A stretch of DNA of 64,000 nt from the NCBI GenBank assembly GCA_951406725.2, contig OX597820.1, forward strand, positions 46,686,001-46,750,000, written 5' to 3'. Below the pieces are notes generated by a model. It was not told the DNA's origin and did no database searches. It saw only the letters and a program-made list of their open reading frames with translations. This stretch comes from Octopus vulgaris. Its lineage: Eukaryota. Positions within the stretch are counted from its first letter, which is position 1; every line of letters starts with the position of its first letter. Shown here piece after piece: positions 39,901 to 42,900 of this stretch. A program made the translations under genes and the position numbers.

Positions 39901-42900
39901 CTATAGCCTCGGGCCAACCAAAGCCTTGTGAGTGGATTTGGTAGACAGAAACTGAAAGAAGCTCATCGTATATATGTATATGTGTGTGTGTGTGTGTTCA
40001 TCTCCCCAATATCGCTTGACAACCGATGCTGGTGTGTTTATGTCCCCATAACTTAACAGTTCGGCAAAAGTGACCGATAGAATAAGTAGCAGGCTTACAA
40101 AGAATAAGTCCTGGAGTCGATTTGCTTGACTAAAGGCGGTGCTCGAGCACGGCCACAGTCAAATGACTGAAACTAGTAAAAGAGTAAGAGTAAAAGTGTA
40201 TATATATACATATATATATATATATAATAAGATAACTACAGAGATGTACTTGCATAGCAAGTGATTTGATCTGAGATCGTGTGCTGAAACGAAAACAATT
40301 GCAGCGTGGAAGGTGTTTATAAGCCATTTAAGAAACACACAAAAGCCGTTAGATGCAGCACGGATTTTTGTCAGTGAACAGGTCGCGGTCTTAAGACAAC
40401 GAAAATATTTTGACAAATTAAACTTAAATGTTGAAGTGAATCGAACGGCTTTTGTGTGTTTCTTAAATGGCTTACAAACACCTTCCACGCTGCAATTGTT
40501 AATAAGATAACATTATTAATAAAAATAATAATAATAAAGTAGCCAGCAAGCTTAACCAATATAGGTAAACATAATAAAGATTTAAGATATAAAAATATAT
40601 ACCAGCTATGAATGTTTTGTCTTCTTTCTAGAATAGCTGGTATATATTTTTAATACCCTAAATTTATATATATAAGCATATATACATACATACATACATA
40701 TATGTGTGTGTGTGTGTGTGTGTGTGTGCATGCGTATGTGTGTGTGTATACAACAGGCTTCTTTCAGTTTCCATCTACCAAATCCACTCACAAAGCTTCA
40801 GTCAGCTATAACAGAAGACACTTGCCCAAGGTGCCATGCAGTGAAATTGAACTTGGAACCATGTGGTTGGGAAGCAAGCTTCTTACCACACAGCCCAGTT
40901 GGAACTCTGTTACAAAAAAAAATCAGTTCAATTTTTTACCCTTTGATTCATTATTTTTGTCTTAATTTACTACAGGGACTGAACTCAGGTGTAGCATATC
41001 ATCTCTGGATACAACAACCTTTATTCATGATCACAATAGAACATATCATTATTCTGCAAAAAAGGCAAACTTACACGGTTTGAAGTTCAGTTCGGCATTT
41101 TAAGCACTGATTTTTAATGACACTCTGAAAGTCTTCTGGTAATAAAGGAAGTTCCATTTCCATCAATTCTGCAAGGTTGACGAACCGCAAATTTTCAAAT
41201 CTACCAAACAATAAAGAAGATGAAGAAAAACAATAAGTTATGCTAAAATGCAAACTTTTCCTGAGTTACAAGCAGCTTTGACTATCATCATCATCATCAC
41301 CATTTCTATTTTCACCTTCACCACCACCAACACTTATACCATAGGAAACGTCTACATTGTCACTTAACCCTTTCTTTACCAACCCGGCTGAAACCAGCTC
41401 TGGTTTTGTAGTACAAATGTTTTGTTCTCATAAGTTTTGAATTAAAATCTTTCACCAAACCTTAGTCACAATTTATGTTCTTAACACGAGCTTAATGATA
41501 ACTAAGTTATTTTACTAAATTATTTGTTATATTTTAAATAATGGAAAGAAACACAGAGCATCTCAAAATAAATATGGTAACAAAAGGGTTAAGCTGTGAG
41601 AAATAGTAGCTAAATTCATTCAAACCACATGCAGTTATCTTTGAAAAGGAAAAATAGTTTGGACGATGTATTGATTACACAAAAGAAGGATTGCCCCATG
41701 TTAAACTACAATACTATAAGCAACAATAATACCAACACCAAACCACAATTTCCAGTCCTGCACCATCACCACACTACTCTCTCATGCAGCCACCAAAAAA
41801 TTAATTGATCTAGTAGAAATAACAGTCAAATCTTTCTATATTGTCTTTTAAAAATAAAAAGGACACATTGTAAAAAGTATGTCTATGTCTAAAAATCAAG
41901 ACTGTGTAGTAACAGAAGGAATGTCTTTAACCCTTTTGTTACCGTATTTATTTTGAGATGCTCTGTGTTTCTTTCCATTAATTTTAAATATATCAAAGAA
42001 TTTAGTAAAATAACTTAATTACCATTAAGCTAATGTTGGGAACATAAATTGTGACTAAGGTTTGGTGGAAGATTTTAATTCAAAACTTAAGAAAACAAAG
42101 CATTTGTACTACAAAGCCAGAGGCGGTTTCAGCCAGGTTGGTAATGAAAAGGTTAGTGATAGATTTTCCTGAGCAAAGCTGACTTGAAACTAAACACCAC
42201 CAGATCTACAATGGTTAATCTAGAGAAAGAAAAATTACTTACTGTTTGCACCAAATACTTTGCAGCTCCAGCATGACGGGGTTGATGGCAAATAAAGAGA
42301 CAAGGTTGAAGTGTTTTAATACAAGGTAGGAATTGTGCCATGGTATAGGGGCTCTGATCACTCTGTTAAAGATACAGATAGGTATAAAGACATATATTCA
42401 ATTGTTTAATTATATAGTAATGTGTGTATCAGATTGGAGCCTGGTGTAGCCATTTGGCTCGCCAGTCCCCAGTCAAACCGTCCGACCCATGGCAGCATGG
42501 AAAGCGGACGTTAAACGATGATGATGATGATGATGATAAAGTATGATTTGGATGAAGTTCAGCTGTTCTTTCTTACAGGTTGAGTGACCACTTTGGGGTT
42601 GTTATTGTTGTGGCTACCATTTCTAACAGAATTATAGAATGCTACTTATAGGCTCACATACATATGCATATATATGTATGTAATACCGACTCATAAGGCC
42701 CAGTTTCCAGGATTTTGTGGCACATATATTCCCCTGGATGGGATGCCGGTCCATTGCAGGATTACTCATTTTTGCCAGCTGAGTGGACTGGAGCAACATG
42801 AAATGAAGTGTTTTGCTCAAGAACACAATGCGTCACCTGATCCAGGAATCAAAACTACCCTAACCACTAAACCATGCACATCCACTTTATATATGAATAT

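Follow-up and report, generated by a model that had tools for sequence, protein, structure and literature searches.

What is a hammerhead-like motif with a swapped core pair doing between two inverted arms in the genome of Octopus vulgaris, and could it act as a ribozyme? The locus covers positions 40226-40511 of the window, by which is meant the whole stretch of 64,000 nucleotides that was analysed. The preliminary description read it as a G3-C8 hammerhead displayed in the loop of a fold-back element. The swap at core positions 3 and 8 is present in the letters as first quoted (G3 at 40374, C8 at 40379, U17 at 40410), stem I does form seven perfect pairs (40367-40373 / 40411-40417), and the 11-bp target-site-like duplication, AATAAGATAAC, is found on the + strand at 40226-40236, where it abuts a (TA)n tract, and again at 40501-40511 (12 nt counting a T in common). 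The inverted arms, given as 57 bp, measure 64 nt at 95% identity. A pattern scan for hammerhead-like motifs with a Watson-Crick 3-8 pair and a stem I of at least 5 bp finds one in the window, and the chance control gives one match in the real window against one in total across 60 Markov resamples. An Rfam scan of the window returned 131 matches at E<=5, with no hammerhead family among them.

The register of the motif is best taken from its relatives, here called family A. The family copies read a GUGAACA core, an extra G after A9, stem II as GTCGC/GCGAC, GAA, the palindrome AATATT, U17 and stem I. Pattern, family register and folding together place a minimal type I hammerhead at 40367..40417 on the + strand of the window, with the core G3 (40374) U G A A C8 (40379) A9, the extra G at 40381, stem II at 40382-86/40396-400, GAA at 40401-03, the palindrome at 40404-09 and U17 at 40410, the predicted cut falling just 3' of U17. 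Stem II had been described as GTC TTAA GAC, a register that does not hold. The true stem begins after the extra G, and in the window copy its 3' strand is ACAAC instead of GCGAC, which breaks pairs 10.3 and 10.5 (two of the five); this decay is also what yields the inner GTC/GAC hairpin. In folding predictions the pair 10.1-11.1 of the window copy has a probability of 0.0; in two intact copies it reaches 0.99-1.0. The window hammerhead is thus predicted to be inactive and not to fold, and its decay makes it a poor copy for an assay. In intact family A copies stems I and II are predicted at P about 1.0, and stem III is palindromic.

The scaffold pattern with positions 7 and 8 left free has 10,067 genomic matches and none with a reversed control. 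Exact G3-A7-C8 with an intact stem II occurs in 5,160 genomic copies; that stem combined with a position 3 of A, C or G and a position 8 other than C occurs in 329. A downstream motif has 5,588 matches, and the first 100 (all on contig C1) form a sample blind to the core, with G3-C8 in 67 of the 75 copies that cover both positions and scattered mismatches in the remainder; the swap first noticed in one copy is the state of the family. The canonical CUGANGA letters with C3-G8 are absent in family A, and G3-C8 stands in their place. The rest of the hammerhead core (U4 G5 A6, A9, G12 A13 A14, A15.1-U16.1 and H17) is present in the window copy and in the family majority. An older subfamily, 76% identical downstream (87/114 columns), has G3-C8 in 25 of 35 matches when positions 3, 7 and 8 are free, with C at N7 and a different loop II. 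Its stem I pair 2.6/1.6 has changed from T-A to G-C (17 and 15 of 29 loci), and its palindrome is reduced to a 4-nt AATT. Young, middle and old subfamilies of family A all have G3-C8 in most of their copies. As a side observation, contig ends reading GTGAACAG occur in sequencing runs from organisms designated A, C and D, a weak hint that G3-C8 is common to related species.

The source of these copies is a Penelope-like element (PLE). Its coding copies were reached via a peptide from a deleted copy, which led to long ORFs. In 8 of 20 loci examined, the 203-nt unit adjoins, at 99-100% identity, an ORF with reverse transcriptase (RT) and GIY-YIG parts, and two loci (L253 and L254) have a pLTR-ORF-pLTR layout. 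The single ORF of about 1,070 aa contains the motifs DKSG, DVVSLYPSI, GGAIG and YVDD, followed by a linker C-x3-C-x2-C before the GIY-YIG endonuclease (PF01541, E=1.8e-5, which passes the Pfam cut-off). Pfam RVT_1 does not match the family A ORF; the RT is assigned from the motifs and from homologs, of which the closest named one is labelled an RT-domain protein. The protein is 27% identical to another PLE of the same genome. Near-full-length copies are 98-99% alike, and the eight of them hold 13 intact G3-C8 motifs and no unbroken ORF from ATG to stop. Along the element, the ORF stop is followed by a short UTR, a GT...AG stretch, +1, G3 at +21, the predicted cut after +56 and the ATG at +113. 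The hammerhead therefore sits in the 5' UTR of the PLE, between an intron-like acceptor and the ATG. The GT...AG stretch is 706-1,410 nt long in the near-full-length copies and includes a branch-like CTAAC. Copies with a spliced junction were not found in the loci examined, nor was a donor-to-acceptor joint among the contig matches listed, and neither result says anything for or against splicing.

Several other sequences turned up as well. A 3.4-kb tandem at G000:C2:171.24 Mb was considered as a full element and rejected, being a local segmental repeat without an ORF. Near several contig ends (L010-L018) an internally deleted family A copy is repeated, in which the ORF start is fused in frame to RT-proximal sequence and a 221-nt intron-like stretch is present; the repeats lie in an apparent subtelomeric duplication, and these copies are not independent insertions. 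Protein P0069, which carries the annotation dynein regulatory complex subunit 6-like, has a stretch 66% identical to the PLE ORF, which is either exonisation or a mis-annotation. At L113:5414-7705 there is a distant, intact PLE ORF of 764 aa, present as an inverted pair, and its pLTR has another U3-A8 hammerhead-like motif.

With the parent known, the parts of the window locus can be named. Inside the left duplication lies an inverted, 5'-truncated 'long' arm (40237..40357, - strand), which by alignment to the autonomous copy L253 spans element positions ~+83 to ~+203 and ends in the PLE tail. This arm includes about 30 initial ORF codons, with the ATG at 40327-40325 (-). The tail itself, the ~58 nt between the short and long 3' ends as defined by samples of 3' ends and of fold-backs, is on the long arm alone (40237..40293, -). 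The sense 'short' arm (40353..40500, +) runs from about -3/+1 to +146 of the element, and consists of the 5' UTR exon with the hammerhead and 11 ORF codons. Its PLE ORF start (40467..40500, +), with the ATG at element +113, ends after these 11 codons; in L253, L254 and L251 the same frame runs on into RT and GIY-YIG. Arm alignment shows that the arms have in common a 6-nt junction microhomology, TTAGAT (40349..40354), which contains the AG (40351-40352) predicted as intron acceptor, and L136 and L151 have that junction too. The insertion here is dead and ordinary, a doubly truncated and decayed copy of a young PLE with no special role. Near the locus the window has further inverted pairs: one at 41536-41592 / 41927-41983, and another at 39817-39907 / 40805-40895 made of opposite copies of a common short repeat, which we take to be an octopus SINE.

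Fold-backs of this kind are frequent in the family. One hundred sampled matches correspond to 86 insertions, with an inverted arm in 38 and a single arm in 48, and a long end is paired with a short one in 32 of the 38 fold-backs. The 3' ends of 100 sampled copies fall into two groups, 40 at +143-153 (short) and 59 at +196-207 (long). A (TA)n tract lies beside 58 of the 86 insertions, and among 28 insertions away from (TA)n, 19 have duplications of 7-14 bp. These figures bear on a rival explanation, in which the locus would be a fold-back or MITE-type DNA element whose loop resembles a hammerhead by chance. The 64-nt arms, the flanking duplication and the empty Rfam result for hammerheads would all suit it. 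It is hardly credible all the same, as the arms are non-terminal and differ among copies, single-arm insertions make up more than half of those sampled, the sequence belongs to the 5' UTR and ORF start of an RT element, as the coding copies demonstrate in refuting it, and sister families have compensatory changes in the motif. The window fold-back is a usual inverted, 5'-truncated PLE insertion, and its tail and duplication are likewise normal marks of such insertions. Its arms are opposite copies of one element, and the idea that the motif is displayed in a loop by design does not survive.

How such an insertion might arise is suggested by the anole PLE, in which both strands are nicked and extended from two internal RT starts (PMC11167929). 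In family A, the RT-endonuclease would nick an AT-rich target on both strands, with some 11 bp between the nicks, and reverse transcription would be primed at two internal sites in the ORF start, giving one arm per strand. One cDNA would reach the start of the 5' UTR and the other would stop at about +83, and the two would be joined at the 6-nt microhomology to produce the fold-back. It is worth noting that family A +2..+12 pairs with +129..+139 (window 40354-40365 / 40483-40493) in a predicted closing stem, in the short form only, which would bring the short 3' end next to the common 5' end; family B, treated below, has a similar stem over its ATG.

The 5' ends of the copies tell where their templates began. 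They lie at -5..+5 (window 40348-40357) in 45 of 100 sampled copies; counting just the 48 copies that lack an inverted flank, 19 do so. Near the predicted cut, no more than 5 nt from it (+52 to +62), there are 2 of 100, which indicates that inserted copies come from uncut RNA and that cut RNA is an unusual template. The cluster at the predicted intron acceptor could mark a short RNA start, a second start site or an RT stop. The same ends speak to a second rival, a non-autonomous retrozyme, whose short unit would give tandem transcripts that are cut into monomers, made circular and inserted again. Most family A copies in the core-blind sample are indeed only 150-205 nt long, and animal retrozymes stem from PLE pLTRs, according to bioRxiv 10.64898/2026.07.22.740005. 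One head-to-tail pentamer is known as well, at L353:1313-2457 (G000:C27, near 31.28 Mb), where five family A units, each from +1/+5 to +205, are separated by (TA)n with a 12-bp duplication outside, so that five G3-C8 motifs stand in natural tandem. This origin is nevertheless very improbable. Copy ends are fixed PLE RT start sites in the ORF and are not permuted around the cut, and the unit agrees at 99-100% identity with the coding copies' pLTR. The tandem forms that the preliminary description would have had searched for amount, for the long end, to four exact matches to a head-to-tail junction in the whole genome; two of them are true, both in one locus.

The relation to a U3-A8 family proposed at the outset is borne out and extends further. 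Family B, likewise a PLE, has 2,190 matches, and a hand count of the first 100 finds U3-A8 in 93. Its insertions in the window are at 34711 (+) and 46422 (-)/46430 (+), the second being a long/short fold-back. In a third sister, family C, C3-G8 is found in 95 of the first 100 of 4,247 matches (hand count). The 3-8 pair is thus Watson-Crick in all three families, as G-C, U-A and C-G respectively. Parts of the core and of stem II were preset in the search patterns, leaving positions 3, 7 and 8, stem I and stem III as the unbiased parts. Stem II reads GTCGC/GCGAC in A, GTTGC/GCAAC in B and GTCAC/GTGAC in C, with one compensatory pair each, and U4, G5, A6, G12, A13, A14, A15.1-U16.1 and H17 are kept in all three. 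The proteins of A, B and C are 45-58% identical, and one sister element matches a protein with the label Octopus vulgaris at 98% identity. A quick tree unites the three in a single clade (SH-aLRT 100), B and C being sisters; the tree holds our own families and unnamed homologs, has its B rows tiled from broken copies, and supports no claim on the ancestral state. Since only three lineages vary, the independent events at 3-8 are few, with at least two double changes. Position 9 is an invariant base of the hammerhead core, A9. In family C it is C, not A, in 85 of the first 100 of the 4,247 copies (for example at L268:2100-2160), including young ones beside full-length ORFs of about 1,310 aa. The loss of A9 from most of family C suggests that catalysis can be relaxed in the clade.

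Does the family A ribozyme cut? The intact G3-C8 hammerhead is probably a slow ribozyme that needs a dimer partner or the element's protein. Two hammerheads would pair through the palindrome AATATT, which would complete stem III and allow a cut after U17. In such a dimer- or protein-assisted hammerhead the 3-8 pair would be required and its letters would be free. Cleavage would probably hit a minority of transcripts, in processing or translation control, with template ends set otherwise. As a precedent, a double mutant, C3G/G8C, brings back part of the protein-assisted cleavage in a PLE hammerhead (PMC11167929). In PMC3884650, the C3-G8 pair is visible in the tertiary-stabilised structure and absent from minimal ground-state structures. 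In PMC4209133, minimal PLE hammerheads show weak cleavage even as dimers. Against cleavage in family A count the incompleteness of the laboratory rescue, the UUU triplet and the extra base G, which departs from the published CUGANGAH consensus. The triplet had been called poor from the start, and it still weighs against cutting; it has become less odd, as the supplement of PMC4209133 gives UUU as the triplet of an oyster PLE hammerhead.

A third rival accepts the same element and supposes that its hammerhead no longer cuts usefully. It would be kept as a folded 5' UTR module, with a role in protein binding, translation start or as a splicing aid, and positions 3 and 8 would have drifted among Watson-Crick pairs under selection that acts on folding and leaves chemistry aside. 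The change of A9 to C in most of the family C copies counted agrees with this, as does the lack of an excess of 5' ends at the predicted cut. Published work points the same way: catalytic mutants leave PLE insertion in vitro unaffected and none of the anole PLE reads end at the cut (PMC11167929), and the weak cleavage of minimal PLE hammerheads (PMC4209133) fits too. What makes the folded module unlikely is the retention of U4, G5, A6, G12, A13, A14, A15.1-U16.1 and H17 in A, B and C although their proteins share just 45-58% identity, together with the fact that the 3-8 pair is part of the active conformation (PMC3884650). In addition, a translation role in viral 5' UTRs required a cleaving ribozyme (PMC13725137).

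Selection on active core geometry is favoured over a relic because the 3-8 pair of the active conformation has been re-made in three ways. A 3-8 pair selected through catalysis would thus be the probable case, and is ranked above a purely structural relic, which is doubtful. The fullest form of this reading, a naturally selected and cleaving G3-C8 hammerhead in a clade with three 3-8 pairs, with more than 5,000 G-C copies from old and young expansions, is put forward tentatively, as something that may well be true without yet being probable. Belonging to it, and held with the same reserve, is the proposal that the template of the short family A copies has its 5' end at the intron acceptor and not at a ribozyme cut.

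The C3-G8 pair of the hammerhead was deduced from a crystal structure and confirmed by swapped mutants, and in nature it has been reported with C-G and U-A. The likeliest place for an earlier report of natural G3-C8 is the work of Lunse et al. in 2017, which reportedly covers about 150,000 PLE-linked hammerhead variants. Our literature search for a natural G3-C8 hammerhead gave it only as a laboratory variant (with one mention in PMC3884650), and an earlier report may exist. PLE hammerheads and U3-A8 were known; what appears new is that a young PLE, whose sisters have U3-A8 and C3-G8, bears G3-C8 as its natural core. A young transposon family on G-C completes most of the 3-8 covariation set. 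Together with its sisters it provides a matched natural series on one scaffold in one genome, namely G-C, U-A, C-G and C-G without A9, and this series makes it testable whether PLE hammerheads are selected to cut or merely to fold. The abundant G3-C8 variant escapes ribozyme descriptors and Rfam models. If G3-C8 hammerheads do cleave, searches with CUGANGA would overlook a whole layer of animal ribozymes.

The nearest known systems are the minimal type I hammerheads in the pLTRs of metazoan PLEs (Cervera and de la Pena 2014, PMC4209133). Family A resembles these in its pLTR location, the extra base between 9 and 10.1, G10.1-C11.1, a 5-bp stem II and a palindromic stem III that needs a dimer, as well as in the thousands of solo truncated copies and the opposite-strand pairs. 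Natural U3-A8 is found there too, and such PLE hammerhead features, U3-A8 included, were already published in PMC4209133 and PMC3088659. The differences lie in the core, which is G3-C8 here and C3-G8 or U3-A8 in the rows examined of their 56-motif alignment; in the extra base, which is G here and A, U or C there; in the 7-bp stem I found here; and in the three 3-8 pairings within one clade of one genome. Animal non-LTR retrozymes (PMC7229834 and bioRxiv 2026.07.22.740005) are likewise short, non-coding type I hammerhead units from PLEs. Unlike these retrozymes, family A forms tandem arrays only exceptionally and has ends that are not set by the ribozyme. Further literature in the comparison was PMC6155905, PMC6765202, PMC8495972 and PMC2377424.

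As to the type of element, PLEs of the Neptune/Nematis kind, with a C-terminal endonuclease, have a CX2-5CxxC linker (Craig et al. 2021, PMC8557442), and family A similarly has a single ORF with RT, C-x3-C-x2-C linker and GIY-YIG, partial tandems, inverted 5'-truncated copies, a one-sided tail and a (TA)n bias. By its linker it fits that type. Another close system is the Poseidon PLE PAc of the green anole (Frangieh et al. 2024, PMC11167929), in which a hammerhead also adjoins the ORF start, targets are AT-rich, and two 3' ends within the ORF start flank a tail. The tail is 30-40 nt there and ~58 nt here, and in family A, unlike PAc, the motif is wholly upstream of the ATG and a Cys linker precedes the endonuclease. 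In PAc the C3G/G8C double mutant is partly active, and the G3-C8 pair that was made there as a laboratory mutant is the natural state here.
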